Part shown: positions 5,215-41,821 of the stretch, piece after piece
How the letters are laid out: every line of letters begins with the position of its first letter
Numbering within the stretch: position 1 is the first letter of the stretch
NCBI GenBank assembly: GCA_964620925.1
Contig: CAZUKL010000003.1
Location: 4,230-68,229, forward strand
Origin: an uncultured Gammaproteobacteria bacterium
Lineage (GTDB): Bacteria; Patescibacteriota; Microgenomatia; UBA1406; GWC2-37-13
DNA length: 64,000 nucleotides
Direction of reading: 5' to 3'
Translations under genes and position numbers: made by a program
Notes under the pieces: generated by a model
Seen by the model: only the letters and a program-made list of their open reading frames with translations
What the model was told of the DNA's origin: nothing
Database searches by the model: none

Positions 5215-7392
5215 CTACTGCATCCCTGCGGTGTCTGTGGCATCATAGAGATGTGGCTCCTGGTGGCGCTTTATATAAAATACCACCATCAGTATAGTGA
5301 CTACTACCAACATCACTAATAAGGCGAGGTACGTAAACAGTTGTGCTGATGTTGCGCTTGTTTGAGCACTTGCTACGGGCGTAACTGCTCCTCCTGCACC
5401 AGGTTGTGGCTTTACAGGATTAGTGATCGTCAACTCAGGCTTTGTCATTGCTGAATTGGTTGCTTTGAATGACTCTTGCACCAGAACTGCCTGGTTTGTG
5501 GAGAACATATCTACCTTCTTGCTTGAGGTGTAAATAGCATTTTCAGAGAGAAGTTGTGCAACTGACACTTCCCGCGGTTCGCTGCCACCAGGCGGTGTAT
5601 AAATCAAATGGTATCCCATACGTGGGAGAGCTGAAGGTGGGATACGATACTGCCCTTGTATATCGGACTTTGTCTCATATACCACGTCTTTCACAAACTC
5701 GTCATATACAGATACTAGTGTGCCGGGCAATACTTGTCCGGTGACTGATTTTGTGACTGCATCGATATAACGTGGGTGGGGATCGATCACGATCGTTGAG
5801 ATAGACGTTGCACTCACCGTCCGTAAACCTTTTATCTTGCGCGCCTGAGCTGCGGGATCTCCATAAAAATCAGGCTTGATAAAATCAATCTCGATGGGAC
5901 TGGCAGAGACGATGCTTGTTGCAGGTATTGTGATGCTCCATCCTCCTTTTTCATCCACTCGTCCTATGGCAACTACGGTCGACTCGATGCGCGCGCTGAT
6001 TTGGGTGTATGGGTGTGTGACAAGTCCAAATACATACATCCCTTCTGGGTTATCGATGACGGTGTATTGTGTGCGTTGGGCAACTGGACGATTCGTGTTT
6101 ACCCCAAGCTTCGTGGCATCAATAGGTATGTCCCTTCGTTGGATGAGCCCTGGTGGTTCATCTATCTGTTCTATGCCTACAAGCGTCTGAGGATAGAGCT
6201 CTGTGTAGAGATCCTTTGGACCACCTTCCACTGGTACCATAACCTTATATATCGCACCAACCTTCTTGCCGTACTTGATCCTGCTGATCTGTTCAGCAAC
6301 TGACATTAGTACGCTCGAAGGATCGCGTTGTACATAGGAACGAAGCGTTTCAGATTGTGGTGGTGTTCCAAACACATCAAGGGCATATGAACCTGGTTTT
6401 ACTACGAACGCAAAGGAACCTTGTGCATCAGTGCGTGTGATTGGGTTTAGGATGGGCTGACACTCACGAGAAAAATCATTTGTAAACACATTTCCGTTTG
6501 ACCGCATACACTCCTTTGGCGTCCAACGATCATTTCTTTCAAATAAGTGCACTGCGACGTCCGACAGTGGCTCGAGTGTGGATGCGTCAAAAACAAATCC
6601 ATACGGATCAAACTCAACTATATCGGGCTGGAGCGAACTTGGGCCCAAGTATATCTGGTCGGAGATCTTTAGTGAGGTGCTTTGTGTGGTTATTGCAGGC
6701 AGCTGATTTGATGTCTTGCTGGAAAAGCCAACCGCATAGTACCAGTGAGGAAGGCTGATATTTGGATCGGTGTCTGTAAACATTCGGAAAACATCTCCTG
6801 ATGTGATTTGCAACTGACCATTGTTTTGGAAGTTGTTCTGGAGAATATAGCCAGGGTCAGTCTTTCCTTCAAATTCTGGCTCTACTCCTGATTTACTAGC
6901 GAGGATCAGCGCAATCTCTGACTGTTTCGCTTTTTTGACAAAGAACCCGCCAGAACCGTCATGAAGCTCGAGGTCTAGTTTGTAGCGTATCGAGTCTAGT
7001 TTTTCCCAATTTTTGGCTACGAGCGAATCACAGTGTGCAGCTTTTGATTCGGGATTTGTATACTGGGACTGACACATGATTTTGTCCCACTCTTTCTTGC
7101 CAGTAGAACAAATGGTTCCCTTTTGATTATCACTGGAGACCCATTCTGGATTACGGATGAGACACTCAACGATAAAAATGCCCTTATCAAAATCCTTCGA
7201 ACTTATGGTTCCTTGGGGTACGAGGGTAACTTGGTGTGAGTTTGGCAGTAACCGCGCGGCGAGATTTACTAACAATTGAGGTCTTAATATCTCAGTACCG
7301 CCCCCTCCTGACTGTGCAAAGGCGGTGGAGAATGGCATCAGACAGACCACCAGAACAAGAAATAATTGAAGTGCCTTTTTTGATATGTGCAT
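5215..7392 (-). CDS. Large secreted surface protein with C-terminal membrane anchor (725 aa)
   Basis: N-terminal signal peptide (LMPFSTAFAQ). Beta-rich body with segments like carboxypeptidase-regulatory/Ig-like domains. C-terminal TM YLALLVMLVVVTILMVVFYI followed by basic residues. Confidence 0.6.
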   Translation of the reverse strand: MHISKKALQLFLVLVVCLMPFSTAFAQSGGGGTEILRPQLLVNLAARLLPNSHQVTLVPQGTISSKDFDKGIFIVECLIRNPEWVSSDNQKGTICSTGKKEWDKIMCQSQYTNPESKAAHCDSLVAKNWEKLDSIRYKLDLELHDGSGGFFVKKAKQSEIALILASKSGVEPEFEGKTDPGYILQNNFQNNGQLQITSGDVFRMFTDTDPNISLPHWYYAVGFSSKTSNQLPAITTQSTSLKISDQIYLGPSSLQPDIVEFDPYGFVFDASTLEPLSDVAVHLFERNDRWTPKECMRSNGNVFTNDFSRECQPILNPITRTDAQGSFAFVVKPGSYALDVFGTPPQSETLRSYVQRDPSSVLMSVAEQISRIKYGKKVGAIYKVMVPVEGGPKDLYTELYPQTLVGIEQIDEPPGLIQRRDIPIDATKLGVNTNRPVAQRTQYTVIDNPEGMYVFGLVTHPYTQISARIESTVVAIGRVDEKGGWSITIPATSIVSASPIEIDFIKPDFYGDPAAQARKIKGLRTVSATSISTIVIDPHPRYIDAVTKSVTGQVLPGTLVSVYDEFVKDVVYETKSDIQGQYRIPPSALPRMGYHLIYTPPGGSEPREVSVAQLLSENAIYTSSKKVDMFSTNQAVLVQESFKATNSAMTKPELTITNPVKPQPGAGGAVTPVASAQTSATSAQLFTYLALLVMLVVVTILMVVFYIKRHQEPHLYDATDTAGMQ

Positions 7393-7506
7393 TTAAAATA
7401 GGTGGTGTATACAACTCATAATAAAATACGTGAACTATACCCTATCAGACTAGCTAATTCTAGATCCCTTGTCAAGTGTGACTCTGTGCACTACTATGTG
7501 TGTATC

Positions 7507-10500
7507 ATGAGATCTCGAATCTTCGCTATTGTAGCTCTTTTTGTAGTGCTCATCAGTCTCGCTCCTGACACCGTCCAAGCACGTGGACTGGATATGTATG
7601 ACTATATAGAGTTAAAAATCACCCCTTATCCCTGCTTCAAACATCGTGGTGCAGGTACAGGGGCTCCCGTTTGTCCAAAAGGACATCCTGAATTTTATTC
7701 TACCGGAAGCTCGAATCAGCCTGAATATGTAAACCCTGCAAATATTCCGCCAGTGTCTTACAATCAATACAAATCTACATTGCTGGGACAAATCGATAAT
7801 AATCATGACACTCAGGCTGACTACTGTATAGGTTTATTTTCAAACCCGCTCCCCAGCCCAGGCGTCACCCTCCCGCCCCCTCAGCCAGCATTTGTGGATG
7901 ATCCGACACATGCGCACTACTGGGCAGAAGATCCAGAAATCACCGCGCTCGGCAAAGCAAATGACCGCGCGCGACAGTTTGTTTTCTGGGTTATGGGACG
8001 GCCTGCAAATGATGACAATCCAAAACTAAAAGAAATCTGGGCCATCTCTCGAAACGTCGCCATATCATTTGTGGTGCTGACTGCTGCGCTTATGGGTATT
8101 TGGATCACGATAGCCCATCGTCTCAGATATCGGATCATCGGCGAGTTTGGCGTGTGGGAGTCTGTCAGCAAGATAGTCATGTCACTCCTCTTTATATCAC
8201 TCTCTGCGTCCATAGTCCTTATCCTGATCCAACTATCCGAGATCCTGATGAAGTTTTTCATTGAGTCACTCGCAGGCAGAGATTTGTTTAACGTGTACTT
8301 TGGCTCGGGAAGCACTGAGGCAAACTATGTGGGCTTCATCGGTTGCCGTGACCTCAATATACGCGTGAACGAATCAATAGAGACTCAGATTTTTCTTCTC
8401 CGACTCACGAACATCACCTATTACATCATGGGTGTTATGCTCATCCTCCGCAAGATACTCCTCTGGTTCCTCCTCTTTGTCTCACCATTCCTCCCTATCC
8501 TCCTCAATTTCCCTCTTATCCGCAATACTGGCAAAATCTGGATTGGCGTATTTTTCCAGTGGCTCATGTATGGACCGCTCTTTGCGCTCTTCCTCGGTGC
8601 TACTGGTGCGATTTGGAAGTACGGTATCCCCTTCCCCTTTGATTTCTCTCGTATAAATAGTCATTTGGGCTATATCTTTCCCAATGCGATTATGATCGTG
8701 TACGGAGGGCCAGCGCAAATAAAAACAGGTGCCATCAATGCGTTTAACAGCGGCAACTATGTGGACACGTTTGTCGAATACGTCATCAGCTTGATCATGC
8801 TGTGGGCTGTCATATTTTTCCCCTGGTGGCTCCTCCGGATATTCCGTGACTATTGTTGTGAGGCCATCATGGCTATGGGTGCCAGTGTCAAGAATCTCGC
8901 TGATACGCTCCACCCAGTACCTCCGCCAAAACCTCCTCCTCCTGTACAACCCATCAAGGCAGCACCCCAGCCAACGGTGGCACCGATCCAACTCGCCAAT
9001 GAGATATCACGTTCAATCAATCTCGCCAATGCGACCCAGGTCCGCCAGGCGCAAACTGCTCAAATCGCGACAGCCATGAGTCTAAAGGCGACGACACTCA
9101 AGGATGTGGCAAAACTTGAAGCAAACAAAAATATGATGTCGGCAGCAAAGCAGAGCTTTGCCATGCTCCAGAATCCACTCGCCGCGACGACAACCTCGGA
9201 GCGGGAAAAGTATCTGAATGTGCGCACTGAGCTCTTTACCCGCGCATCATCCAAAAACGATGCCTTTGCAAAGTCGATGCTCGCAACTGCATCCACCTCA
9301 TCCACTGAGCATGCACAGCACAAACAAGAGCTCATCAAGTCTGTAGATGCGATCGTCTCGCAGATGAACAACACGATCCCCGCCTCTCTTTCACAGATTT
9401 CCTCACAGACATCAAACATCTCAGCAGAACGCATCGGCCAAATCACCAATACTGTCATGGAGCATCTCACCCAAGACATGCGAACGCTCTCTACTATCTC
9501 GACCAGGACCACAGTACCTATCGAGCAGGTGAAGTCCATTCTAAAGTCCTATGCAGCGAATATCACCCAGCCGCTCAATCAAATCGTGGAAAAGATCGCC
9601 TCAGTCGCAAATACTTCAAAGCAATCGGTCAAAAATGTCTTGCAAGAAACAAATAGCATCATGAGTCGTGGTTACTCATTTAGAGAGCTCGCACGCACCA
9701 CAGGCATCGATGAGTCCAAGTCTGCCGAGCTCCTTTCCCAGATCGATGTGGCAACCGCTACGACAGGTACTACCTCACCGATCCTCATCCAAGCATTTGC
9801 AAATGAAAAGGTGTCAAGCTTTATCAAAGAGGTTGCCAAGCGCGCATCTACTGATGAGGTGGTCATGACACATATACAGTCAGTCACCGGCCTAAGTCAC
9901 AAACAGATCGAGTCCACGCTCCTCGCCATCTCCTCAGGCCCATCGATCACCGATGAGACCATGCTCACGCAGATCCAAACTGCATATGGAGTGGATAAGG
10001 TAAAAACGTTGGCCATCGTGAAGGATGCGCTCGCGCAGACAGCTGATGCGGGAAGTGCAGTGCCTCAATCTACTGTTGAGGGTGAGTCAGTCGAGCAAGC
10101 CACCGTCCTCCAGGATCAGCTCAATACCGCCGTGAATCCAGAGAGTCAGATCGACCAGATCATCCCCGTGCCTGCAGACCAGTCGCTCGACGAGTATGAG
10201 GAGATACGCGAGCTGTGGGTCGAGCAGTATGAGAAGGAAGAAGTGCCACTCTCTGAGCAGATCACCTCTCGTGCAGATTGGGTCAGTCAGGATATCACGC
10301 TCATGACGAATATACTGAATAAGCTCCTGTCCGCAGATCAGCAGATGAGACAACAGGCACTAGACGAGGTAGGCTTTATTCTGCCAATTTTCCTCATCAA
10401 CAACCTCAGTGGATCACAGCTCTTGACGTATCTTAAAGCGAAGCTTTCAGCAGCAAAGCAAGTTCAGAAAGCACAGCTCAAGAAAGATGCACAGGTAGTC

Positions 10501-12806: not shown

Positions 12807-12821
12807 GAATATGTAGTAATT

Positions 12822-12893
12822 TCCCTGGTAGCTCAACGGTAGAGCAGGATGCTGTTAACATCAAGGTTCGAGGTTCGAATCCTCGCCGGGGAG
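12822..12893 (+). tRNA. tRNA-Asn (anticodon GTT)
   Basis: Hand-folded. Acceptor TCCCTGG/CCGGGGA, D arm GCTC-AACGGTA-GAGC. Anticodon loop CTGTTAA (GTT). T arm CGAGG-TTCGAAT-CCTCG, discriminator G. Confidence 0.9.
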
Positions 12894-14345
12894 CAGACGT
12901 TGACAAGTACTAAAATTGAGGATCGTATCAAAGGGCTTTGTCGCTTCGTATCGCACTACTTTACCCTCTACTCTCAGGTTCTGAAGTACGAGCTTGATAA
13001 GTTGTCGTTTTTCTTCTACTTCCGAACCGACAAAAAGATCATACGCGCGTGTAGCGAGTTCTAGCAGGTAGTTTGCTGTAATGTAGTAGTTATCTTCTGC
13101 TTCCTGAAGTATGGCAAGACGGGTATCAATTTCGGCGATCTTGTCTCTGAAGGTCTGATAGTATCTGTCATACATATCGTCAGTAATACGTCCGTCTAAT
13201 CGATCGACGTATAAGTTCTCTATTCTTTTGCTATACGTCTCGTGATCTTTCGTTAGTTCTGCATGCTGTGCTTGTCTGAAATCTACCTTGCTATCATGCG
13301 TTGTCTTTAGCGCTTCTATTATTTGATGGAGTACTGCTTCTGGTAGTTGGAGCTGTTTGAAGACGTTGCCTATCTGCTTAGTGATTTCTTCTTCTCTGAG
13401 CCACTGTGCGTCATGCTTGCCGTTGTATTGAGTGCAGTGGTAGTACACGTGTCCTTTCTGTTTCTCAGGGGTGATAGAGAGACCGCAATGACCACATCTG
13501 AGGAGTCCACGGTAGATATAGGGTAGCTTGCCCGCGAGCTTATACCGTTTTCCGCTATACCCTGCTTTGAACTGCTGCACTTGGTCAAAAAGCTCTCTAC
13601 TTACGACGAGCGGATATTTGTGGTTATACACTTTTCCCTTCCATGTCATCTGACCGGCATAAAAGCTATTTTTGAGGATTTTATCGGTGTAGCCATGTGA
13701 CCAATCGACTCCATAGTCTTCTTTGATTTTATGCCGTAATAGATCCATAGAGTATGCACCTGTAGCGTAGAGCTCATACGCTTTTTGTACGATGCGGGAT
13801 GCGAACTCATCTATAATTATCTCGGTCTTATCTTTGCTGACGGTCTTGCGGGTATATCCATAGGGATGCTGACTCGGGTATATCCCACTTCTGAGCATTT
13901 GTTCCTGGGCCCGCTTGACGTTGTCGCTGATTGCGTCAGAGTAGTATTTGGCAAGGCCTAGACTCATACTGAACGCAAACTTTTCTGTAGCAGATATGTG
14001 GCTATTGATCGTTTGCCCATCAGATACGAAGTGGAGCTCTACCTCATCCTTTAGGGCCTTTTCGTAGAGCATAGATACACGCTTATCAAAGACATTTCGG
14101 GATAGCCGATCAACCTTATCAAAGCATACCGCTACCTTTTCCTTCTGAGCGATCACAAAGTCCAGAATACCGTCAAAGTCACTGCGCTGGTCTTTATACG
14201 CGCTTTCATCAAAACTTTCCTCTTTGATGATTTCATAGCCTTTGTTTTGACAATATTTCCTGAGTCGCGCTATCTGAGCGGGTAGAGAGTTACCCGCTTC
14301 TTTCTGTTCTTCTGTCGATACTCGTGCGATGATTATAGATTTCAT
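12861..14345 (-). CDS. Large serine recombinase (integrase)
   Basis: Resolvase catalytic N-domain IIIARVSTEEQ...LPAQ, recombinase domain, zinc ribbon CGHCG...YYHC, coiled-coil C-terminus. The last 11 codons and stop run into the 3' end of tRNA-Asn. Confidence 0.9.
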   Translation of the reverse strand: MKSIIIARVSTEEQKEAGNSLPAQIARLRKYCQNKGYEIIKEESFDESAYKDQRSDFDGILDFVIAQKEKVAVCFDKVDRLSRNVFDKRVSMLYEKALKDEVELHFVSDGQTINSHISATEKFAFSMSLGLAKYYSDAISDNVKRAQEQMLRSGIYPSQHPYGYTRKTVSKDKTEIIIDEFASRIVQKAYELYATGAYSMDLLRHKIKEDYGVDWSHGYTDKILKNSFYAGQMTWKGKVYNHKYPLVVSRELFDQVQQFKAGYSGKRYKLAGKLPYIYRGLLRCGHCGLSITPEKQKGHVYYHCTQYNGKHDAQWLREEEITKQIGNVFKQLQLPEAVLHQIIEALKTTHDSKVDFRQAQHAELTKDHETYSKRIENLYVDRLDGRITDDMYDRYYQTFRDKIAEIDTRLAILQEAEDNYYITANYLLELATRAYDLFVGSEVEEKRQLIKLVLQNLRVEGKVVRYEATKPFDTILNFSTCQRLLPGEDSNLEP

Positions 14346-14350
14346 AAGTG

Positions 14351-15442
14351 TTATCTTCCTGCCTTGGTGCGGTTATCTTGTTTACAAAGCATTTGACAGT
14401 TATCTGCTATAGACCTACCTCCCTCGTGCCACGGCTTGATATGGTCAGCTTCCATCTCGGCGATGTCATACTTTTTCTTGCAAAATGGGCATTTACCATC
14501 TTGTCGCTCGTATGCCTCTCGCTTCATCTTATCCGTGAACGCACGGATTGAGAGGTGCCTTTCTTGGTGTGTGAGAACGTATGGATAGATCCCAGACTTT
14601 TTAGTCACATCCTCATCTTGCATCAGTTTTTTGATCTCTGACTCGAGCTTTACAGAATCGAGTTTTATAGCTTTATATTCATTGTACAGCGGGCCCCACT
14701 CTACACCTTTCATTTCACTCCGATATGTCGTAAATGTCTGACGTACCCATGCAATAACACTTTGGAAATACGTCCACAATTCATCAGCATTCTGATCGTG
14801 TTGGTGTCTCGCCATATAGTCCTCAATGTGATCCTCACTTATCCACGCGAGTGTAGTCTCAAGATATTCCTGTCTGATAGGTGAGCCGACGAGAAGTGAC
14901 CCGCCATCATTTGCCAAGAGATATGCAACACAGTTCGATTTACTGAATTTTCGCTTTGCATCAGTGAGCCATGGGCCCGTGTATACTGCGTTTCGTAGCT
15001 CTTGATCTGTCAGCTTTTCCCCTGCGATATTGATGATACGGAACCAGTCTAACCGCTCTTTATCAGTCCCCGTGCAAAAGTAGATCATCAATTCGTACTC
15101 AAGTATTTTTTCTTGCTCCTCACGAGTGAGATTATGAAAGTAACGGTCATTGAGCGAAAAATCACCTTCTACATACTGACCTATACTGATCGTGCGTTGC
15201 TGACCATCAAGGACTTCATAGCCCCCCAGGTCAGTCTGCACCCAATACATGACATTCAGAGGGAAGCCTTGGATGATAGTGCGTATGACTTCATCCCGCT
15301 GTTTACCGCTATACACGAATTCACGTTGATACTTCGGTCGTACATCGAGTTTGCCTCCATACGCCACGACCCCTTCCTCTGCACTATCTTTATACCCCTC
15401 CACCACGTCACGTATTTTGATTTTGTGAAGTTCAATTTTCAT
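14351..15442 (-). CDS. DUF262 (ParB-like nuclease superfamily) - HNH endonuclease fusion
   Basis: RPKYQREFVY and DGQQRT motifs of DUF262. C-terminal HNH CPFC...EADHIKPWHEGGRSIADNCQMLCKQDNRTK. Confidence 0.8.
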   Translation of the reverse strand: MKIELHKIKIRDVVEGYKDSAEEGVVAYGGKLDVRPKYQREFVYSGKQRDEVIRTIIQGFPLNVMYWVQTDLGGYEVLDGQQRTISIGQYVEGDFSLNDRYFHNLTREEQEKILEYELMIYFCTGTDKERLDWFRIINIAGEKLTDQELRNAVYTGPWLTDAKRKFSKSNCVAYLLANDGGSLLVGSPIRQEYLETTLAWISEDHIEDYMARHQHDQNADELWTYFQSVIAWVRQTFTTYRSEMKGVEWGPLYNEYKAIKLDSVKLESEIKKLMQDEDVTKKSGIYPYVLTHQERHLSIRAFTDKMKREAYERQDGKCPFCKKKYDIAEMEADHIKPWHEGGRSIADNCQMLCKQDNRTKAGR

Positions 15443-15451
15443 ATAGTTATA

Positions 15452-16633
15452 TTACAATTTCTGTATGATGATTCTCGCGTATAGTATCGATAAATATCCA
15501 TTGCAATTATCTGCAGTATAGTAAATATCGTTTGGCTTCTGTTTATGCAAGAGAGTAGCGCGAGTATTTGCTTTGCTTCCGTTTGAGATAGAGCCATCGG
15601 TATTTATCTGTTTTGGATTAACATAACGTTTCGTTGGCCTAGCCTCAAATTCATCCCTTCCAGCTGTAATACCCATAATCTTAAACTGATTAGGGTTATA
15701 CTTATCAAGAAATGTAATCGGAACACCTATTGGTTTATCATAATCCATCGGTATATCTGCCACTTTTGCCACCTCGATAGCATCGTAATTATCATATTTT
15801 GGGTACTCTTCGGGTGTGTATTTTTTATAAAGAGTTAGCATTTCGTGACGTTTTGTGGTGTCCATATTGGTAAACCACATAATGCTACCCATACTGAAAT
15901 ACTGCACTCCACTCACTATCTTTTTTCGTGACTCAGTAGGTATGTCATAATCCATGGGCACCTGAAACCATTTTGTACCTCCATTGTCATAGCCAAGCCA
16001 AAGTCTATTTTCTTTGATATGTTTAAAGATCTCCTTGTATGTAAGCGCGTTTTGACTACCGAGAACTAAAAACTTTTTCTTATTTTCTACAAGCTGTGCC
16101 ACATACTCCCTAAAGAGCGAAAAGGGAGGGTTTGTGACGACTATATCCGCTTCCTTCAGAAGCTCTATACTCTCGTCGCTGCGGAAGTCTCCTTCACCGT
16201 TTAGCGGTGCCCACTCGTTGTGTTTATTGGCCTTCAGCTGCTCAGCGATGTCGCGTATATCAAATGCTCCATCGCCGTCTATATCACCTACATCATTAAT
16301 GATGAATCGATTAGCTGTCACTTTTGGGCGACCTTTTGGCATTGGCAAATCTTCGGCATCACCGAAGAGCCCTAGTTGGGTGTTGGCAATAGGCGAAGGT
16401 TTATAGCTGGTCGTGATGAGTCTTTTGAGTCCGAGTTTTTTGAAGTTACTCGCAAAGTATTTGAAGAAGTTGCTCTCGTAGGGGTCGTCGCAATTGCAGT
16501 AAACGACCTTGTCTCGAAACTGTTCTTTGTAGTAGCGCAGCTCCTTTTCGATGTCGACCAGCTGAGTATAAAACTCATCTTTTTTGGCTTGATTTGCCTT
16601 GTGCAAGTTGGTGTTGAGAGATTTGCTTTTCAT
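15452..16633 (-). CDS. N6-adenine DNA methyltransferase, EcoRI-methylase-like family
   Basis: N-terminal KDEFYTQ...VVYCNCDDP...FFKYF block and catalytic VVTNPPFS motif. Confidence 0.75.
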   Translation of the reverse strand: MKSKSLNTNLHKANQAKKDEFYTQLVDIEKELRYYKEQFRDKVVYCNCDDPYESNFFKYFASNFKKLGLKRLITTSYKPSPIANTQLGLFGDAEDLPMPKGRPKVTANRFIINDVGDIDGDGAFDIRDIAEQLKANKHNEWAPLNGEGDFRSDESIELLKEADIVVTNPPFSLFREYVAQLVENKKKFLVLGSQNALTYKEIFKHIKENRLWLGYDNGGTKWFQVPMDYDIPTESRKKIVSGVQYFSMGSIMWFTNMDTTKRHEMLTLYKKYTPEEYPKYDNYDAIEVAKVADIPMDYDKPIGVPITFLDKYNPNQFKIMGITAGRDEFEARPTKRYVNPKQINTDGSISNGSKANTRATLLHKQKPNDIYYTADNCNGYLSILYARIIIQKL

Positions 16634-16635: not shown

Positions 16636-16824
16636 TTATTTATGCTGATTGGCAAATGTATCCAACGCTTCTTTGCTTATCCTATATTGTTTACCGACTT
16701 TTATCGCAGATAGCTTGTGCGCTCTGACCCATCGATACACTGTCAGGTAGGCAACCTTCAGCATTGTAGCGACTTCTTCGATTGAGTAATACTGATCTTG
16801 AATCATAGAAATTATATTTATCAT
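16636..16824 (-). CDS. Excisionase-family / MerR-like helix-turn-helix DNA-binding protein
   Basis: 62 aa. YSIEEVATMLKVAYLTVYRWVRAHKLSAIKVGKQYRISKEAL is the typical excisionase-family HTH. Confidence 0.75.
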   Translation of the reverse strand: MINIISMIQDQYYSIEEVATMLKVAYLTVYRWVRAHKLSAIKVGKQYRISKEALDTFANQHK

Positions 16825-16837
16825 TATTTAACATTTA

Positions 16838-17971
16838 TCACTGAAAGTCAACTAGCTTTAGTGGTTCAAACTTGGTCAGATACCCACGGATTACAGCAAG
16901 TGGACTTATGGTCGGCGGTAACTGTATCTTTTTTGTTTCTGCGATCAGTCTATACCAGCTCCTCTGACTCTTGCGTCCAAACATGGCCCTTAGCTCACGT
17001 GGGTTTACCGTGTCAAAGACTTGCTTGAGGCCAAACATCTGCATGATCCGTTGTGGGCCCATTTGAGGATTTTTGACAATCAAGTCTGCCAACAAGGCCT
17101 TTGGTGTAGTGGACTTGTAGTCGAGTAATGCAGGGCGTTTACTTTCAATTTCATCCAGATAGTGCAAAAGGACTTTTTGCGATATGGTCGGGTCAAACAA
17201 ACTTTTGAAGGTTAGCTCCGACGAGATACCAAGCGTGCCGAAAAGTTGCCCGATCTTCTGACGTTTATTGAGTCGCACTTCCATACGCAATACTTCAAAT
17301 CGTTTCTTTTCTTTGATCGTATCAAAGAGACCTAGCTGTATCGCATTATCTTTTTCAAGTGCTCGCTTTTCACTGACTTTTGAGGCTTCAAGATCCTTTA
17401 TCTTGTCGTAAAAGGCTACTTCATATGAGTTGGCGTGCCATTTGTAGCTATGCCCATCATTGCGAAAGTCCGTCTGATTCACATCAAGAGACAGCTTTAT
17501 ATTTGCCTCTTTGATTTTGCTGATGATGTAATGAGGTGTTGTACCGTCTGTCAGGGGTATATTTTTAGCATAATGGACGGCTGACACATTAGCATTTTTT
17601 AGTGTGTCGTCCATGACCTTCACGCCCATATCTCTCAATCGTGACTTCAAAAGTCCGGCTACAGGGCCAAAGTCACCAGCAACCAGCTCATCAAAATTGT
17701 TACCAAACAAGAGCTTCGGTAGTGATAGCTCGACTTTTAGGGTAGGCTCACGCCCTCCCGTACCATTGAAACGATTTGTCAGCGTGAGACGTGGCTTATA
17801 GATACCGCTCTCAAGATCGCTCTTTTTGGGGTTCTGTTTTGCGATCGCAAACCCACGACCACGCATAGGTGATCCGTCACCCATAACAAACCGTGCGGAT
17901 GGTTCAAATAGGTCTGGTTCGTGGATATAGAACATACCTTTAGTCAGTGTTAATACAACGGTGTCGATCAT
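16838..17971 (-). CDS. Putative phage/plasmid replication initiation protein (gene II / CRI-like)
   Basis: The MIDTVVLTL... N-terminus, the size (377 aa) and the position in a mobile-element operon resemble the II/X replication family. Recalled similarity only. Confidence 0.35.
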   Translation of the reverse strand: MIDTVVLTLTKGMFYIHEPDLFEPSARFVMGDGSPMRGRGFAIAKQNPKKSDLESGIYKPRLTLTNRFNGTGGREPTLKVELSLPKLLFGNNFDELVAGDFGPVAGLLKSRLRDMGVKVMDDTLKNANVSAVHYAKNIPLTDGTTPHYIISKIKEANIKLSLDVNQTDFRNDGHSYKWHANSYEVAFYDKIKDLEASKVSEKRALEKDNAIQLGLFDTIKEKKRFEVLRMEVRLNKRQKIGQLFGTLGISSELTFKSLFDPTISQKVLLHYLDEIESKRPALLDYKSTTPKALLADLIVKNPQMGPQRIMQMFGLKQVFDTVNPRELRAMFGRKSQRSWYRLIAETKKIQLPPTISPLAVIRGYLTKFEPLKLVDFQ

Positions 17972-18236
17972 ACGATTTTGTTACATTTTCAAGTTTTTCA
18001 ATAACCGCCTGTTCGATTTGTTTTGTGACTTCCCGATTGATCGGATGGAAGATGTTGAAGTCTCCTTTGGGCCCTTTACGGGTAGGATAAGTCAGACGAT
18101 AGCCACCAGTAGGCCTGGTATATATTCCGATTGAGCTACAGTACAGACACCCATCAAAAACGAAGCTCGCAAACCCCACCAGCCCATTGCTAGGCTTGAT
18201 GGGCACTATTTGTATTTCATTTATTACGTGGGTCAT
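17940..18236 (-). CDS. spoVG: SpoVG family protein
   Basis: EIQIVPIKPSNGLVGFASFVFDGCLYCSSIGIYTRPTGGYRLTYPTRK matches the SpoVG N-terminal core. Confidence 0.7.
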   Translation of the reverse strand: MTHVINEIQIVPIKPSNGLVGFASFVFDGCLYCSSIGIYTRPTGGYRLTYPTRKGPKGDFNIFHPINREVTKQIEQAVIEKLENVTKSYDRHRCINTD

Positions 18237-18405
18237 GTTGTTTTCTCTCCTTTGCTCGGGCTATGCCTCTTTGAGTTGCGCGCCCGTGCATCAACTGGTA
18301 ATAGTCCTTCATAAACTTCTGAATGAGTAATACGAGTTCATCTTCTGTGTGTATTTTTTCTACCATTTTCAACCACCTCCTTTCTTGTTTTATTTTTTCT
18401 ATCAA
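18217..18405 (-). CDS. Small hypothetical protein
   Basis: ORF at the head of the minus-strand operon, overlapping the SpoVG-like start. No motif. Confidence 0.3.
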   Translation of the reverse strand: MIEKIKQERRWLKMVEKIHTEDELVLLIQKFMKDYYQLMHGRATQRGIARAKERKQHDPRNK

Positions 18406-18545
18406 TTTTTATGAGCAATGAAAAAAACTCAGTCAATTTGCTGAGCTCTGTTGAGGAAAGGATGTATCCCTGTTTACTCGTCGTTACGTTTTCGGTACTC
18501 ATTACCGATAGGATATAAAACAGGGTTGTAGCTAAAGTTAGCTAA

Positions 18546-19262
18546 CTATTTAGCCAGAAACCTGGGGTTCAACTGAACTGTAGTGAAGGGTTTTGCCAAT
18601 AAGAAGTCTTTCGTCTGTGTTTCTATTGCCACTTTGTCATTAATTTTGCGTACGGCGTTGTATATCTGTCTTGCCTTAAAGTTTTCAGGTTCTTCTCTAT
18701 TTTCTTCTATGATTTCGTCCCAAGACCACTTACGCTTTATGTTGGCAAGGTTTTTTAAAACTACACGGCAAACCATTTCTAGTTTTGTATTTAATGGAAT
18801 GATTATTGTCTTACCCTTAAAGGTTATGACACCTGTAGCTATGTCATACTGAGGTACTAGCGACCCTTTAGCGATTGCTAATTGTGCTTCCAAAAGTCGT
18901 ATTTGAAGCTCTGTCATATAAGCTTCACGCTCTTCTTTTTCTCTTTCCCATTTTGATTTTTTGATAGTTACTGGCGGGTCGTATCTCTCGAAATTAACTA
19001 AATCTATGTTTGGCGGTTCATATACTGGAAGTTCTGGCATTTTGATTGTTTCCAAAATGTCCAAAATAGGAAACTTGGGAGCAGTAATTGACTTGAAAGC
19101 TTCAAATAGGTTTGAGCTTGCTATTTCGGCAAGTGAAGTTCCGAGCTTGGCAAATTGTTCCTTATTTGCCTCTACAATCGGTTTTAATGCTTCTGTCCGT
19201 TTTTCAAGGGACATCTTGTCTAAATCGTATAGGGTTATTTTCTTATCTGATAATTTCGGCAT
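18546..19262 (-). CDS. Hypothetical protein, possible C-terminal winged-helix DNA-binding domain
   Basis: 238 aa with a coiled N-half. The C-half (KRKWSWDEII...QIYNAVRKINDKV...) is weakly wHTH-like. Confidence 0.35.
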   Translation of the reverse strand: MPKLSDKKITLYDLDKMSLEKRTEALKPIVEANKEQFAKLGTSLAEIASSNLFEAFKSITAPKFPILDILETIKMPELPVYEPPNIDLVNFERYDPPVTIKKSKWEREKEEREAYMTELQIRLLEAQLAIAKGSLVPQYDIATGVITFKGKTIIIPLNTKLEMVCRVVLKNLANIKRKWSWDEIIEENREEPENFKARQIYNAVRKINDKVAIETQTKDFLLAKPFTTVQLNPRFLAK

Positions 19263-19286
19263 AATTCATTACATTTTCAATGCTGC

Positions 19287-20180
19287 TTAAATATGTCTGC
19301 TCATCGACGTGCTTTGTATGCTGTAACTTACAAACCCATCGGTTACATTGGGCGTTATTGTCATTTCACCTAAACGACCCTTGAAGGTACTCGGCTCGTT
19401 TGGTGGCAGATTAGCCAATATATCGTTAGCTTGGTCAGCTAGCGTGACATAGAAATGCAAACATTTGGTTATTTTATCCAAGAGTTCTTTGTAAGGGATG
19501 TGACGATTTTTGCTAATTATCATCAAGCCGTTGTGGTCAAGGCAATAATGACCGTGCGAAAACGCATTACGAATATCCTTGTCATATATGTCGTTAAGAA
19601 TATCCTCTAAGGACACATTGGCTTTTTTGCTTTCCTTTATAACCTTTTGTATTCGGGCAATAATTGGCATTTCAGAAATTCTCAGTTTATAAGACAGCTT
19701 AGAAATAAGAGCCTTTTGTTTAGCAAAGTCAGTTTCCTTATCAATTTCAGCAAGTAACGCTTTTGTTTCTTCTTGGGTTAGGGCTTTATCTTCTGAGCTT
19801 CCAAATGGATGAAGTTGGTAATCTTTACCTTGAGCTAATAGAGAGAGGTTGTATAAAAACTCGAAAGTTGGGTAGGTTTCAATGATGTGGCAATAAACAA
19901 GTAACCCCATTTTGAAAAAGGAAGATACAGACATAATCTGAGGATTTGTATTTCTCAACATTGTGAGCTGGAAAAATAACCCAATCGTTTCACCCAGCTC
20001 TTTACTTACGTCATAGGAACTTAGGGTCATTATTCCTCTGAAATAGAGGATGGAAGACATTAGCTCTTTCTCGTCTTTTTCCTTTGCCCTTTTGATAAGC
20101 AGGGCAATAGTTTCGTGGTAGAGTTTTTTAGTTTCCTCTTTAGGAAATAGCTCGCTGTCTTTTGTTTTTGGTATTGCCAT
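19287..20180 (-). CDS. Hypothetical protein with HEPN-type R-x4-H motif
   Basis: DKDIRNAFSHGHY (R-N-A-F-S-H) sits in a helical C-terminal half. No other recognisable domain. Confidence 0.45.
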   Translation of the reverse strand: MAIPKTKDSELFPKEETKKLYHETIALLIKRAKEKDEKELMSSILYFRGIMTLSSYDVSKELGETIGLFFQLTMLRNTNPQIMSVSSFFKMGLLVYCHIIETYPTFEFLYNLSLLAQGKDYQLHPFGSSEDKALTQEETKALLAEIDKETDFAKQKALISKLSYKLRISEMPIIARIQKVIKESKKANVSLEDILNDIYDKDIRNAFSHGHYCLDHNGLMIISKNRHIPYKELLDKITKCLHFYVTLADQANDILANLPPNEPSTFKGRLGEMTITPNVTDGFVSYSIQSTSMSRHI

Positions 20181-20181
20181 A

Positions 20182-20919
20182 CTAGGTTAAGATTTCGGCT
20201 TGGTCTAGTAAATTCATCGCTAGACTACTAAGCGTTAGGTATTCATACGCTCTTTGTGGGTCATCTATCTTGGCATCAGAGGTATGACTTTTTTCGTTTC
20301 GAAACATATCGATAGCCATTGTTAAGAACTTCACACCTTCATTGAAGTCGTGGTCTACGTTTTGAGCGACGGCTCCTTTTATGTGTAGCTTGGTATTTCC
20401 AAAAGCCTTTGAGCCTGTTTCGTGTCCAGTCAGAACTCTTAACCTATCTCTGACAACCTTAAAGCCTTTCTCTACCGCTTCTGGGTATTCTTCTTTTTCG
20501 AACAAGCTGTAGCATTTGTTATAGATTTCTGGGTGTAATACTGATAAATCAGGTAGGGTTTGTGATTTACGTTTGTTGGGAACTTTACCAGTAAAATCTT
20601 GGTATTCTGGTTCATTTTGGATACTTAGAAAATAATCTTCAAATGCTGGAAGAAGCTCTATGTGGTAGGAACCGTCATCGGCTTCATTTAGCCCGTATCT
20701 GTTTCCAATCTCTTTTATCCTGTTTCCTGTTTTAATAATCTTTATTACTTTTTTGTCTTTTTCTAGCTTGGTAAATAGTTGGTCTAACTCAATTCCTCTA
20801 TAGCGATTGTTTAGGTCGTGGGTGGCGTGGATGATGAGAGGTTGACCAGTAGGAGCCAGCACCCGTGCATCTTCTATCGCATCTAAAAGAAAATAAAGTT
20901 TTTGTTTACCGTACATCAT
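20182..20919 (-). CDS. TIGR02391 / Hypoth_Ymh-like protein (HEPN superfamily) with about 115-aa N-terminal extension
   Basis: The C-terminal half (LHPEIYNKCYSLFEKEEYPEAVEKGFKVVRDRLR...FRNEKSHTSD...AYEYLTLSSLAMNLLD) fits the Ymh pattern with an R-x4-H motif. Confidence 0.6.
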   Translation of the reverse strand: MMYGKQKLYFLLDAIEDARVLAPTGQPLIIHATHDLNNRYRGIELDQLFTKLEKDKKVIKIIKTGNRIKEIGNRYGLNEADDGSYHIELLPAFEDYFLSIQNEPEYQDFTGKVPNKRKSQTLPDLSVLHPEIYNKCYSLFEKEEYPEAVEKGFKVVRDRLRVLTGHETGSKAFGNTKLHIKGAVAQNVDHDFNEGVKFLTMAIDMFRNEKSHTSDAKIDDPQRAYEYLTLSSLAMNLLDQAEILT

Positions 20920-20986
20920 ATTTCAATACATTTTCAATACTTATGTTTGTTTATCATATTTTATCAGTTTTTGCTACAATAAGCCT

Positions 20987-21874
20987 ATGGCAAATGCTCA
21001 GAAACCAGTGATAGGACAAGTAATTGACGAAAGAGGCCAATCCCACGATACAAGGAAGGTAATAATTAACAAATTAGAGAAAGCAGTTGGGCGTCCAGTG
21101 GTCTCTCTGTTTACTAGCTTCAAATATCCCGTTATTTTAAGTGATGATGATGCAGATATGCTGGAGGCAATTCTACAGACAATGAACTTACAGCGAGGTC
21201 TAGCCTTACTTTTAAGCTCACCAGGCGGTAGCGGTTTAGCTGCTGAACGAATAATTAACATTTGCAGAAAATACAGTGGTACAGGTGAATACTGGGTAAT
21301 AGTTCCAGGAAAAGCCAAATCTGCCGCAACTATGGTCAGCTTTGGTGCAAGCAAAGTTTTCATGGGGCCCGCTTCTGAGTTAGGTCCAATTGACCCACAA
21401 TTGTCCATTAAAGAAGATGGTAGGGACAAAAGATTCTCACTTTGTAATGTGGTCGAAAGTTATAAGGAATTATTTGAATTAGCTACGAAAGAAAAGGGCA
21501 ATTTACAGCCATACTTACAACAGTTGCAAAGATATGATGCAAGAGAAATCAAAGATTTTGAGGATGCAATTTCTTTGTCAGAAGACATAGCTATTAGAGC
21601 ATTAAAAACTGGGATGATGTCAGTAGAGACAGTGGCTAACATTAAAACGAAAATTAAGGTATTTCTAACGCCAGAAGAAACAAAATCACATGGCAGGCTT
21701 ATTGATAGAGAAAAAGCGGAAAGTTGTGGTCTTATAGTTGAGAAACTTACGCTAAATAGCAAGGTGTGGAGAACGTCTTATGAATTGTATGTCAGGTTGA
21801 ATACTTTTGTTTCAGCTCAAGTTGCAAAGTGTGTAGAAAACAGCCAACATTCATATGCAGTTAATATACAATAG
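20987..21874 (+). CDS. SDH-family (serine dehydrogenase proteinase) ClpP-fold serine protease
   Basis: LLLSSPGGSGLAAERII...VPGKAKSAATMVSFGASKVFMGPASELGPIDPQ matches the PF01972-type motif. Confidence 0.7.
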   Translation: MANAQKPVIGQVIDERGQSHDTRKVIINKLEKAVGRPVVSLFTSFKYPVILSDDDADMLEAILQTMNLQRGLALLLSSPGGSGLAAERIINICRKYSGTGEYWVIVPGKAKSAATMVSFGASKVFMGPASELGPIDPQLSIKEDGRDKRFSLCNVVESYKELFELATKEKGNLQPYLQQLQRYDAREIKDFEDAISLSEDIAIRALKTGMMSVETVANIKTKIKVFLTPEETKSHGRLIDREKAESCGLIVEKLTLNSKVWRTSYELYVRLNTFVSAQVAKCVENSQHSYAVNIQ

Positions 21875-21891
21875 TTGTAAACTGTACGTAT

Positions 21892-22077
21892 ATGAAAAAA
21901 ACAATCCACAGTGCAAAATCAAAAATGAGTAAGGAGCAGGGAAAGAGATTTTGCGAAGCTAAGGTTAGCTATGAGAAACTTCTGCAAGAGGTTTTGCCAT
22001 TTGTGCCAAGGCTTCAGTCAAAAGAGGCTAGTACAGCTGGTACATGGCAGAATACTTCTAGCCTTTTACTTTATTAA
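21892..22077 (+). CDS. Small hypothetical protein
   Basis: 61-aa ORF 17 nt after the protease gene. No motif. Confidence 0.25.
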   Translation: MKKTIHSAKSKMSKEQGKRFCEAKVSYEKLLQEVLPFVPRLQSKEASTAGTWQNTSSLLLY

Positions 22078-22233
22078 AGTACCGCCATATTAAAGGTTTC
22101 AAGTACCGTTTTAATATTTTCTAATCTAAATCCAAACTCAATTTCTCGGTTCTTAAACGCGTCTACCAGGGGGAGCACTTCGGCAAGCTCAGTGCAAGTC
22201 CTTCAATATATTCAGGACAAGCTAATTCTAAAT

Positions 22234-23320: not shown

Positions 23321-23401
23321 TCTGTTGTGTCATTAAATCTGGCGCAAGAATTTCGCTATTCCAGTTTGCTTTCCGAAAATCGTTCCACTGCTCGAGCCCA
23401 A

Positions 23402-23533
23402 GTTGACAAGTACTGAAATTGAGGTTCGTATCAAAGGGTTTTGCGGCTTCGTATCGCACTTCATTCTCCTCTACTCTCAGGGACGATAGTACGAGCTTGA
23501 TTAACAGCTGTTTTTCTTCAACCCGAGTACCCT
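23402..23533 (-). pseudogene. 3'-terminal relic of a second, paralogous serine recombinase gene
   Basis: About 130 nt at about 80% identity (by eye) to 12899-13030. Encodes EEKQLLIKLVLSSLRVEENEVRYEAAKPFDTNLNFSTCQ against EEKRQLIKLVLQNLRVEGKVVRYEATKPFDTILNFSTCQ. The upstream part of the gene is missing. Confidence 0.8.
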
Positions 23534-25117: not shown

Positions 25118-25525
25118 ATGCCCATCAGTCAATATCCGATCCGACCCTACCTTTGGTGGTTTACATATGTTCCTGTCATTAGCAGCACGGGATTTAACAC
25201 CCTATTCACTGACACTATCTACCTGAGCCAAGATTTGTATATGGATTCACAAAGGGAAATTCCAGATCCAGTCACGGTGGCACTGATCAAGCATCAGGAG
25301 GTCCATGCTCATGGTGCCTCGCTCTGGAAAGCAGTGCATTTCGTGTGCTCCTCTACCTTCAGACTCCAAGAGGAAACTCTGGCGTACAAAGCTCAATTCA
25401 ACTATCTTAAAAAGCACCACTTGTCATGGGATCTTGGAGACGTAGCTCGACAGTTCACATCTTCTCAATCACCACTCTGTCGATCTCAAGCCACTGTTTT
25501 CCAGAGATACACTTGCCAAACTTAA
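25118..25525 (+). pseudogene. Truncated duplicate of the 28572-28988 gene
   Basis: The first about 340 nt are about 96% identical (by eye) to 28572-28911. After about 25457 the frame runs antisense into the next gene. Confidence 0.6.
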
Positions 25526-28571: not shown

Positions 28572-28988
28572 ATGCCCATCAGTCCCTATCCGATCCGACC
28601 CTACCTTTGGTGGTTTACATATGTTCCTGTCATCAGCAGCACGGGATTTAACACCCTATTCACTGACACTATCTACCTGAGCCAAGATTTGTATATGGAT
28701 TCACAAAGGGAAATTCCAGATCCAGTCACGGTGGCACTGATCAAGCATCAAGAGGTCCATGCTCATGGTGCCTCGCTCTGGAAAGCAGTGCGTTTCGTGT
28801 GCTCCTCTACCTTCAGACTCCAAGAGGAAACACTGGCGTACAAAGCTCAATTCCACCATCTTAAAAAGCACCACTTGTCATGGGATCTCGGAGACGTAGC
28901 TAGACAATTCTCGACTATCAGATATCTGTGGGTGATGGACTACGGCGATGCTCGGAAGTTTATTCAGGAGGTGTGGGATGCTGCTTGA
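28572..28988 (+). CDS. Hypothetical protein (138 aa), intact copy of the duplicated gene
   Basis: Complete ORF preceded by TATAAT 8 nt upstream. The paralog fragment is at 25118. Confidence 0.5.
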   Translation: MPISPYPIRPYLWWFTYVPVISSTGFNTLFTDTIYLSQDLYMDSQREIPDPVTVALIKHQEVHAHGASLWKAVRFVCSSTFRLQEETLAYKAQFHHLKKHHLSWDLGDVARQFSTIRYLWVMDYGDARKFIQEVWDAA

Positions 28989-39249: not shown

Positions 39250-39320
39250 TGCCTTGTCGTCTAACGGTAGGACAACAGACTCTGAATCTGTTTATCGGGG
39301 TTCAAATCCCTGCGAGGCAG
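39250..39320 (+). tRNA. tRNA-Gln (anticodon CTG)
   Basis: Hand-folded. Acceptor TGCCTTG/CGAGGCA (U1-A72), D arm GTCT-AACGGTA-GGAC. Anticodon arm ACAGA-CTCTGAA-TCTGT. T arm CGGGG-TTCAAAT-CCCTG, discriminator G. Confidence 0.9.
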
Positions 39321-39445
39321 CAAAATCGGAATGACTTCGTGAGACTTAAGGAGAAATAGCCGCGAACTCTTCGGGTTCGAACAGATTATGCTTGTTGGAC
39401 TACTTTCAATGAGCAGTATGAGCCGCTCGTTTACGGCATGTATTT

Positions 39446-40447
39446 ATGAAAATGAAACTAACGAAACCACCTATTCCAATTTTATGGTTGGATACATGGT
39501 TTATTATTGACCTCACAAAAGCACTAAATGGAGAAAGGTCTCAGATCGGAAAAGAAAACGCAGAGAAAATATTCGACTTGGTTGTTAATTTAACAAAACA
39601 GAAGAAGCTAATATGTCCTGAGGGAGACCAGGGGATTGAGATTGAAGATGGTGGTAGGCTCATTGAGGAAGCTCGTAAATTCCAGACACAACTCTCACAA
39701 GGCATATCATTACATTTTTGGGCAGGTGTTGAACACCAACAGATCCAGAGAATGATGAAAGCCGTAATAGAAAAAGATAAATCGGTTGAATTCCCATGGG
39801 AAGGTATCTTTACCCGAGATTTGATTGAAGATATCGAACGCAAAGATCCATATATCGTGAGTGTTCATATCGACCCAAGACCTGAAGAGCTAAAAAAACG
39901 TCAAGATATAAATAAATCAGTTTCAACGGATTGGGAAAAACTGAGACAGGATGCATTAAAATCTAAACAAAGTTACTCAGAAAGACTTCAAATAGAGTTC
40001 AAGGGGATAGCAGATGCAATTGTGCATGTAATGGCAAATGCAGCAGCGAAAACTATTCACAAAATGCCACTTTCAGATGATGAATACTCACAGCTAACTG
40101 CTGTAGCAGGAACACCGCTTTCATGGTGGGAGCATTACTCTGGGAAACAGGATGTGCTAAATGATGTGTTGAAGTTCTATCGATCTCCTGAATACTCACT
40201 CATCCCATATGTTGATGTTAGTACTCGTTTACTCTCGGAGTTAATCACAGGAAATGAAGTTATCCAGCCAAGTGATGTTATGGATATTCATCATATTGCA
40301 ACTGTTTTACCATATGCAACGTATATCGTTCCCGATAAAAAAATAAAAAATAGAATCGAGGGGAAGAAGACAAATCTTGCTAAAGACTATCCATGTGAAA
40401 TATTAAAATGGCAAAATGTTTTGCCATTGCTCGAAAAACTTGCATGA
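39446..40447 (+). CDS. Hypothetical protein, possibly PIN-like nuclease fold with a large insert
   Basis: The N-terminal ILWLDTWFIIDL and C-terminal SDVMDIHHIATVLPYATYIVPDKK resemble the first and last acidic motifs of PIN domains. Weak. Confidence 0.3.
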   Translation: MKMKLTKPPIPILWLDTWFIIDLTKALNGERSQIGKENAEKIFDLVVNLTKQKKLICPEGDQGIEIEDGGRLIEEARKFQTQLSQGISLHFWAGVEHQQIQRMMKAVIEKDKSVEFPWEGIFTRDLIEDIERKDPYIVSVHIDPRPEELKKRQDINKSVSTDWEKLRQDALKSKQSYSERLQIEFKGIADAIVHVMANAAAKTIHKMPLSDDEYSQLTAVAGTPLSWWEHYSGKQDVLNDVLKFYRSPEYSLIPYVDVSTRLLSELITGNEVIQPSDVMDIHHIATVLPYATYIVPDKKIKNRIEGKKTNLAKDYPCEILKWQNVLPLLEKLA

Positions 40448-41355: not shown

Positions 41356-41821
41356 ATCGGGCGATTAAATTAATATAATCTTCTTTAGCCTCATGTTTTG
41401 CCTGATCTAATGCTTTCTGTAAATCAACTTTCATCGCTGCATCTTGAGTATTGTCTATCCACTCAACCCAAATCCGAACAATATCACTAACGAACCAGTG
41501 TGGCTTCTCATTCAGATGCACGCCACCCACTACATTTGCTCCGCCATTCCTTGAGCCATCATCATCCACATGCATCACATAATTATTTAACGGTTCACGC
41601 CAATCATTATTGTATTCCGTCATATTAAATCCACTATTGTTATTTAGAAGCTGTTTCCCATTATTGTAAAGAAAGCTATACAAACTTCGTGCGTGAAGAT
41701 AAATAGAATCTTTAAAGTAATTAACTGTGTTATCAGGCTGATGTTCTTCAAAGAGGCTTAACAATCTATCTGCTCCTAAAAGCAATCTCAGTTCATAGGT
41801 AATATCATCAAGTTTTTTCAT
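41345..41821 (-). CDS. Hypothetical protein (about 158 aa)
   Basis: ORF convergent with 40444-41355. No motif. Start at MKKLDD. Confidence 0.35.
   Translation of the reverse strand: MKKLDDITYELRLLLGADRLLSLFEEHQPDNTVNYFKDSIYLHARSLYSFLYNNGKQLLNNNSGFNMTEYNNDWREPLNNYVMHVDDDGSRNGGANVVGGVHLNEKPHWFVSDIVRIWVEWIDNTQDAAMKVDLQKALDQAKHEAKEDYINLIARFTE

Follow-up and report, generated by a model that had tools for sequence, protein, structure and literature searches.

Separately mobile cargo genes, rather than one defence system, probably occupy the variable end of a serine-recombinase element in a Patescibacteria-like genome

Accessory and defence-gene hotspots are known in mobile elements, for example in P2/P4 satellites. 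The subject of this work is a serine-recombinase integrative element of ~9.4 kb located at ~12.8–22.2 kb of the window, which is the whole stretch of DNA that was analysed (64,000 nucleotides of contig CAZUKL010000003.1, from a Patescibacteria-like genome). As in hotspots of the P2/P4 type, the element combines a conserved backbone with precise slots that swap unrelated small genes among relatives, and the slot contents include restriction-modification (R-M) systems, HEPN-like genes and membrane proteins. It differs from them in that the host of the slots is a ~9-kb serine-recombinase element of Patescibacteria-like genomes and in that one slot, termed slot A below, duplicates a 25-nt leader. 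At the recombinase-distal end of the element (block 19287–22077) a sequence-only reading had proposed a single defence or toxin module, consisting of two tandem HEPN-motif genes for proteins of 297 and 245 amino acids (aa) that diverge from an SDH/ClpP-fold serine protease, with a 61-aa open reading frame (ORF) mentioned in passing. The comparisons reported here indicate that this block is probably a variable cargo end holding three self-contained, separately mobile modules and not one system. These modules are a HEPN gene of a known family (Ymh, 245 aa), an unclassified candidate enzyme (297 aa) and an undescribed protease/small-protein cassette.

The Ymh/TIGR02391 family (PF09509) was placed in the HEPN superfamily by Anantharaman et al. 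2013 (PMC3710099), where its members are described as carrying a conserved Rx4-6H motif, as occurring alone or fused to pMORC, AbiJ-NTD1 or AbiTii, and as being tied to R-M operons. The 245-aa protein resembles this family in scoring above the curated cut-offs, in keeping R-N-x3-H, in standing alone, in having varied N-terminal domains and in having R-M genes near it. Single-gene HEPN abortive-infection (Abi) proteins of the AbiD/AbiF/AbiJ type are similar in that mobile elements carry them as lone genes with a motif of the R-N-x3-H type, and by analogy we model Ymh, and more tentatively the 297-aa protein, on them. The locus differs from HEPN-MNT toxin-antitoxin pairs in that no MNT partner is present, and from HEPN Abi and HEPN-MNT systems in that the 297-aa protein has no HEPN profile or fold match. 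PD-lambda-3 is an abortive-infection system (PMC13190303) that is listed with a PD-(D/E)xK nuclease (PMC10952713). The PADLOC model PD-Lambda-3_B aligned to the Ymh domain at E = 0.0032 and 14.8 bits, which is too weak for membership, and no PD-(D/E)xK nuclease is adjacent here. As PADLOC-DB v2 gave only this match, the block corresponds to none of its systems, in agreement with the sequence-only reading. The protease and its small neighbour recall the NfeD/STOPP protease PH1510 and the stomatin PH1511 in that a ClpP-fold protease is encoded next to the protein on which it acts or, here, would act. The protease described here, however, has no membrane or OB-fold NfeD domain, and its partner is a soluble-looking peptide of ~60–70 aa, not a stomatin.

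The extent of the element was given by nucleotide synteny with the related elements L001, L004, L008 and L012, which runs from ~12821 to ~22177 (blastn). A 25-nt leader/start sequence was found twice in the window, and the two copies bracket an insertion made up of the Ymh and 297-aa genes (repeat search; junction alignment with L012 and L001). L012, whose protease is 95% identical, is without exactly window positions 19285–20916, which is both minus-strand genes, and the junction falls on the 25-nt repeat. The repeat comprises the leader and start of whichever gene is first. This first gene is Ymh in the window; L001 has the 297-aa gene and L012 the 238-aa backbone gene in that place. The 67-bp divergent spacer between Ymh and the protease gene is likewise kept in related elements whatever genes flank it (L001 9928–9997 aligns with window 20990–20922 at 90%, blastn). 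A promoter-like site on the plus strand in the spacer (20951–20980) was not above chance in a promoter scan and was not used as evidence. On this basis the end of the element may be pictured as the conserved spacer with one cargo slot per side. Slot A would lie between the 25-nt leader and the 238-aa backbone gene, and would here be filled by the Ymh and 297-aa genes. Slot B would extend from the spacer to the element's terminal segment, and would hold the protease and its 61-aa partner.

Among related elements and in other genomes the three modules occur independently of one another. The window carries Ymh and the 297-aa gene in slot A and the protease pair in slot B, while in L012 slot A is empty and slot B again holds the protease pair. 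In both L001 and L008 slot A contains the 297-aa gene only, directly after the leader; slot B is occupied by a 99-aa gene in L001 and is without the protease pair in L008. L004 shares the two slot A genes of the window and has a 441-aa gene ending ...LRNEIVH... in slot B. Ymh is followed in L095 by a 282-aa protein with two transmembrane helices, and slot B there holds an unannotated 243-aa gene and no protease pair. Slot A of L107 and L108 contains only Ymh, next to a slot B with the protease pair, and in L110, where there is no element, the protease pair lies alone beside a trp operon. The neighbourhoods of 80 protease loci from other genomes were also fetched, out of at least 590 loci confirmed in species-representative genomes, and neither Ymh nor the 297-aa family was present at any of the 80. 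The single-module idea is therefore not supported, and the co-occurrence outside this genome on which the sequence-only reading had made it depend was largely lacking, as the full set does not co-occur. The gene in slot B of L004 (1542–2867, minus strand) has a HEPN-like motif in its C-terminal ...ALRNEIVHGS... and no Pfam match. The 282-aa protein, whose two transmembrane helices are N-terminal, replaces the 297-aa gene after Ymh in L092 (8760–9608) as well as in L095 (8766–9614).

Other descriptive claims made for the block from the sequence were reproduced. All four ORFs have the proposed boundaries, strands and lengths (Table 1), the two minus-strand genes are separated by 1 nt, and the divergent spacer measures 67 bp. 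The motifs DIRNAFSHGHY (aa 202 of the 297-aa protein), MFRNEKSHTSD (aa 205 of Ymh) and GPIDPQ (aa 133 of the protease) are where they were said to be. The block was also correctly described as rich in A+T, with a GC content of 38.1% (19287–22077) compared to 42.4% in the rest of the element and 45.5% in the window. Its placement in the cargo part of an integrative element is borne out by the large serine recombinase beside tRNA-Asn and by the synteny to related elements.

Each module would be a self-contained addiction or abortive-infection-type unit benefiting the element. We infer such a role from the placement of Ymh among the HEPN proteins, the R-M pair of the recombinase-adjacent slot, the alternative slot contents (a HEPN-like-motif protein, a two-transmembrane-helix protein and R-M systems) and the neighbours of Ymh elsewhere, which resemble those of defence islands and include SIR2, Mrr, HNH-WYL, TIR, DUF2726 and DUF5677 genes.

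The best understood of the genes is Ymh. The 245-aa protein scored 56.8 bits against PF09509 (Hypoth_Ymh; cut-off 25) and 73.9 against TIGR02391 (cut-off 39.45) over residues 128–242, so that the family assignment made from the sequence stands. It consists of a lineage-specific N-terminal part of ~125 aa, for which no profile match was obtained, and a C-terminal HEPN domain carrying R207-N-x3-H212. An alignment of 23 homologues shows no variation at N208 or H212, and R207 is kept in at least 90% of them. By these sequence features the protein is a clear member of the HEPN family with predicted RNase function. The N-terminal part would be a sensor or regulatory domain controlling the C-terminal HEPN RNase (R207/H212), which, once triggered, would cut RNA and cause cell arrest. 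No experimentally characterised Ymh protein was found in the literature, and scans of IMG/VR viral contigs for the Ymh family and for the 297-aa family returned no relatives. The HEPN domain is ~80% identical between Patescibacteria proteins of 245, ~355, ~362 and ~140 aa whose N-terminal parts are unrelated, a pattern which indicates recent shuffling of the domain in Patescibacteria. A gene of the DUF5677 family lies divergent to Ymh in two unrelated contexts, with a strong match in L092 (7075–7923, minus strand) and a weak one in L105 (4108–4944, minus strand; E = 1.4e-4), and DUF5677 may be a steadier neighbour of Ymh than the protease.

Several observations weigh against three fully independent modules, and the main residual uncertainty is a facultative functional pairing of Ymh with its downstream gene. 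Ymh and a gene of the 297-aa family are adjacent in three contexts, these being the window, L004 and L093, and the pairing remains arguable on account of the 1-nt spacing in the window and the L093 case. The context samples are small (n = 8 for Ymh and n = ~10 for the 297-aa family). The 297-aa family lies within serine-recombinase elements in 7 of ~10 sampled contexts and could serve the element's own biology. The defence or addiction role rests on genomic context, and the element ends are given approximately, from where synteny stops.

Stated in full, the pairing would be a facultative two-gene system in which Ymh is constant and its partner exchangeable, the partner being a 297-aa-family protein, the two-transmembrane-helix protein or a DUF2726 nuclease. 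A same-strand gene follows Ymh at a distance of 1–137 nt in all 8 complete contexts, with a spacing of 1–6 nt in the window, L004, L093 and L095. In L093 a Ymh protein that is 79% identical is followed by a 297-aa paralogue that is only ~20% identical. Exchangeable membrane or nuclease effectors are also typical of defence systems, and the observed partners would fit that pattern. Ymh, however, occurs without a partner in L107 and L108, Ymh is lacking from 6 contexts of the 297-aa family, and each of the two genes is more often found without the other. The three co-occurrences are moreover all in slot A of one element family, where a shared insertion hotspot explains them, and the HEPN domain is usually itself the effector. 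We consequently regard a two-gene system as unlikely, although it retains a real share of our doubt.

The 297-aa protein had no Pfam, NCBIfam, PADLOC or PHROG match. A word-indexed search detected 13 close homologues, compared to 157 representative clusters in an exhaustive HMMER profile search, and a metagenome scan with a narrower alignment of the family returned 4 loci. In all 61 family members checked, a Pfam domain over the core was absent. Mean column identity in the alignment of these 61 diverse members was 11%, yet Y96, E101, R204 and H209 are invariant and N111, N205, F207 and Y212 nearly so, N205 being conserved in at least 90%. This pattern of invariant and near-invariant residues suggests that the family is an enzyme. 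Shuffling the 297-aa protein produced a bare R-x4-6-H motif in 55% of cases and RNxxxH in 1.1%; what gives the motif weight here is solely the invariance of R204 and H209, with N205 close to invariant, across the 61 members.

Structure prediction from 14 close sequences gave a model with a pLDDT of 76 and no Foldseek match. The AlphaFold2 model built from the 61-sequence alignment reached a pLDDT of 93.5 and a pTM of 0.87. The HEPN pattern looked for was an up-down bundle of four helices in which the motif opens the last one. The model shows about ten helices and a C-terminal sheet, with the motif in a short helix (201–209), after which come three short strands and then one long helix. Foldseek searches of this model against PDB and BFVD returned nothing at E < 0.03 and listed no HEPN protein; the top matches (DH/PH domains and designed helical bundles) had TM-scores of ~0.13 and were discarded as meaningless. 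A profile search of PDB sequences with the family came back empty, and hhalign gave a probability of 0.1% between the family and the Ymh HEPN profile. Of the two HEPN-motif genes that had been proposed, Ymh thus belongs to a real HEPN family, while the 297-aa protein has the conserved motif and, in these searches, no match to a HEPN profile or structure. With the motif as its sole basis, the HEPN assignment of the 297-aa protein is treated as unconfirmed, not disproved. The protein would be a stand-alone enzyme in which Y96, E101, R204, N205 and H209 would form the active site, and it may be an RNase that carries a HEPN-like motif on a fold of unrecognised type.

It may also be asked if the 297-aa protein, and possibly Ymh, serve the life cycle of the element, by regulation, replication control or the exclusion of competing elements, rather than host defence. 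The frequent location of the family in serine-recombinase elements, noted above, is in line with this, and the 297-aa gene heads a long backbone operon in L001, L008 and L097. It is however absent from the complete elements L012 and L095 and is therefore dispensable. Outside the element family it stands alone among housekeeping genes in L099, between gatB and dnaE, and beside an HNH gene in L098. The invariant polar residues furthermore point to an enzyme over a DNA-binding regulator, and we find a life-cycle function improbable.

The proposal of one multi-gene defence or toxin system, with Ymh, the 297-aa protein and the protease as members and the 61-aa ORF as a possible fourth, draws on the tight clustering of the genes around a single divergent spacer and on the recurrence of Ymh opposite the protease in L107 and L108. 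These two are, however, elements of the same family, and the spacer that separates Ymh from the protease is part of the backbone. As all partial combinations exist among related elements and the 80 protease loci have no relative of Ymh or of the 297-aa protein, such a system is very improbable, and three separate modules remain the preferred reading.

The third of these modules is the protease pair. The protease aligned to PF01972 (SDH_protease) at 39.6 bits (gathering threshold 31.3) over residues 46–140 only, which upholds the SDH/ClpP-fold assignment, and to phrog_11747 over its full length (7.7e-44). Its score against the NCBIfam equivalog NF047768, 'SDH family Clp fold serine proteinase', was 50.3 bits, below the cut-off of 250, and the protease is for this reason considered a distinct subfamily. 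Invariant residues include S78-P-G-G, K111-S112, D136-P-Q and H235. The closest solved structure by sequence was the NfeD protease PH1510, at a marginal E = 0.035; the conserved Ser112 pairs in the alignment with a serine that is replaced by alanine in chain 6m4b, which we take to be the catalytic-serine mutant. More than 2,200 homologues were detected, ~60% identical across phyla, in Elusimicrobiota, Thermodesulfobacteriota, Bacteroidota, Chloroflexota, Actinomycetota, Spirochaetota, Planctomycetota, Acidobacteriota and several archaeal lineages.

The 61-aa ORF begins 17 nt after the protease gene. Mentioned in passing by the sequence-only reading, it is present as stated and turns out to be the actual conserved partner of the protease, in that a homologue lies directly downstream on the same strand in 73 of the 80 fetched loci, spread over more than 20 phyla including archaea. 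The partner family has a basic N-terminus, a helix-like R-x3-A...L...EI segment, an EIxPF motif with an invariant-looking PF and an STxGxW motif. The protease and the small ORF travel together as a conserved unit. When 73 upstream and 70 downstream neighbours were scanned with Pfam, no family common to them emerged as a third partner, except for transposases. The upstream neighbours are heterogeneous and mutually unrelated, and those downstream are often transposases, of the types IS1 (8), IS1595 (4), IS240 (3) and rve (3). An upstream ORF cluster of ~86 aa (19 loci) and an IS1-like downstream gene (13 loci) were considered as third partners and rejected as lineage-confined. On the Acidobacteriota chromosome OZ252113.1 three 3.2-kb copies, 99.8–99.9% identical, each comprise the protease, its partner and an IS1595 transposase (L078–L080, ~5220–8412), and on account of these near-identical units the pair is regarded as an insertion-sequence passenger. 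Neither the protease nor the 61-aa ORF had a PADLOC match, and literature searches on this protease, and on the SDH family, TIGR02391 or COG0616 in defence contexts, found nothing relevant. By analogy with the NfeD protease, which cleaves its operon partner stomatin, the ClpP-fold protease (predicted nucleophile Ser112) would act on, or be held in check by, its co-transcribed partner of ~60–70 aa.

An origin of the pair in a prophage, with the protease left over from head maturation and the small ORF from a scaffold or decoration protein, is scarcely credible, as the weak matches to ClpP-related head-maturation models (NF045542, 2.2e-5; phrog_53, 1.6e-6) and the Mu portal and major capsid proteins found each as one upstream neighbour are set against ~70 other loci without capsid, portal or terminase neighbours, only remote protease relatives in phage and plasmid records (24–32% identity), the lack of IMG/VR relatives for the Ymh and 297-aa families, which were the two scanned and did not include the protease, and the strong conservation of the pair and its carriage by insertion sequences.

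The backbone of the element recurs in contigs encoding homologues of the 297-aa protein, and it is shared by L001, L004, L008, L012, L095 and L097. The recurring order is the 297-aa gene where present, a 238/333-aa protein, small ORFs, SpoVG, a ~380-aa protein, HTH_17, a variable R-M or methylase segment and the serine recombinase; in the window, too, small ORFs are found between SpoVG and the 238-aa protein. Homologous recombinases occupy the matching position in L001, L004, L008 and L095. The R-M pair of the window consists of a GmrSD_N/ParB-like and HNH endonuclease (PADLOC REase_II, 2.8e-135) and an EcoRI-type adenine methylase. The content of this recombinase-side slot differs in L001, L004, L008 and L095, with a SacI-type R-M system, an RrnaAD methylase or an Eco57I-type enzyme among the contents.

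Table 1. Features of the element and of its right flank (window coordinates; a dot denotes no strand; aa, amino acids).
Feature	Position	Strand	Basis
tRNA-Asn, left element edge	12822–12894	+	ARAGORN; homology to related elements ends ~12819–12821 (blastn)
Large serine recombinase (Resolvase + Recombinase + Zn_ribbon_recom), element integrase	12861–14345	-	Pfam
Type II R-M pair, recombinase-adjacent cargo slot	14351–16633	-	Pfam, PADLOC
Conserved backbone operon	16636–19262	-	Pfam, PHROG; gene order kept in L001, L004, L008, L012, L095, L097
HTH_17 excisionase-like, backbone	16636–16824	-	Pfam, PHROG
377-aa protein, backbone	16838–17971	-	
SpoVG, backbone	17940–18236	-	Pfam, PHROG
238-aa protein, first backbone gene beside slot A	18546–19262	-	
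Leader copy 1, before 238-aa gene	19260–19284	-	repeat search, junction alignment
297-aa protein, unannotated family	19287–20180	-	family alignment, predicted structure
Ymh/TIGR02391-family HEPN protein, 245 aa	20182–20919	-	Pfam, NCBIfam, family alignment
Leader copy 2, before Ymh gene	20917–20941	-	repeat search, junction alignment
67-bp divergent spacer	20920–20986	.	blastn, alignment
SDH-type ClpP-fold serine protease, 295 aa	20987–21874	+	Pfam, NCBIfam, PHROG, alignment
61-aa conserved protease partner	21892–22077	+	homologue directly downstream in 73/80 loci
Conserved terminal segment of element	22092–22177	.	blastn; synteny with L001, L004, L012, L107 stops ~22177
129-nt copy (81%) of recombinase 3' region	23394–23522	.	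repeat search

At the left edge the recombinase ORF and tRNA-Asn, which are on opposite strands, share ~34 nt (12861–12894), namely the end of the ORF with its stop codon and the 3' part of the tRNA gene. A second copy of the tRNA-Asn 3' end that could act as the right attachment site was not found within the window. The 129-nt copy of the recombinase 3' region lies ~1.2 kb past the right element end. It aligns as well with the 3' ends of the recombinase genes of L001, L004 and L008, and it was probably left behind by another or a tandem element. The right end is directly adjoined by a recombinase gene in L004 (52–1545), L012 (7093–8892) and L107 (2300–3535). Together with the 129-nt copy, these abutting genes suggest tandem or decayed elements. 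In L107 the equivalents of window ~22176 and ~12922 are joined with a 28-nt gap, as expected of tandem elements or of a circular junction.

Elsewhere in the window a second low-GC island (36–39% GC) was observed at 39250–42700 next to tRNA-Gln. It contains three ORFs without a Pfam match (333, 315 and 174 aa) and a DUF3800 protein (41950–42678). A 300-nt direct repeat of 97% identity, with copies 3.45 kb apart (25118–25417 and 28572–28871), covers the starts of ORFs of 135 and 138 aa, neither of which has a Pfam match. The closest genome record, L012 (JBAZCD010000001.1), with the same backbone, is labelled as a Pedobacter sp. metagenome-assembled genome; as the nearest named homologues of Ymh and of the protease are from Patescibacteria, this contig may be mis-binned.

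Two of the modules merit attention as leads. The protease/small-protein cassette is ~60% identical across more than 20 phyla in both prokaryotic domains, is mobile, and is absent from PADLOC and the searched literature. The 297-aa family comprises 157 representative clusters and combines a confident predicted fold that has no known structural neighbour with invariant, catalytic-looking residues. Taken jointly, it is conceivable, and put forward here only tentatively, that the protease and its partner form a new, widely transferred addiction or anti-phage cassette carried by insertion sequences in bacteria and archaea, and that the 297-aa family is a new enzyme fold that independently reached a HEPN-like R-N-x3-H active site. 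The proposed multi-gene HEPN/protease defence system itself dissolves into neighbours in a cargo hotspot, by which misdirected cloning effort is spared, and the element family shows in compact form how cargo is exchanged slot by slot in Patescibacteria-like genomes.

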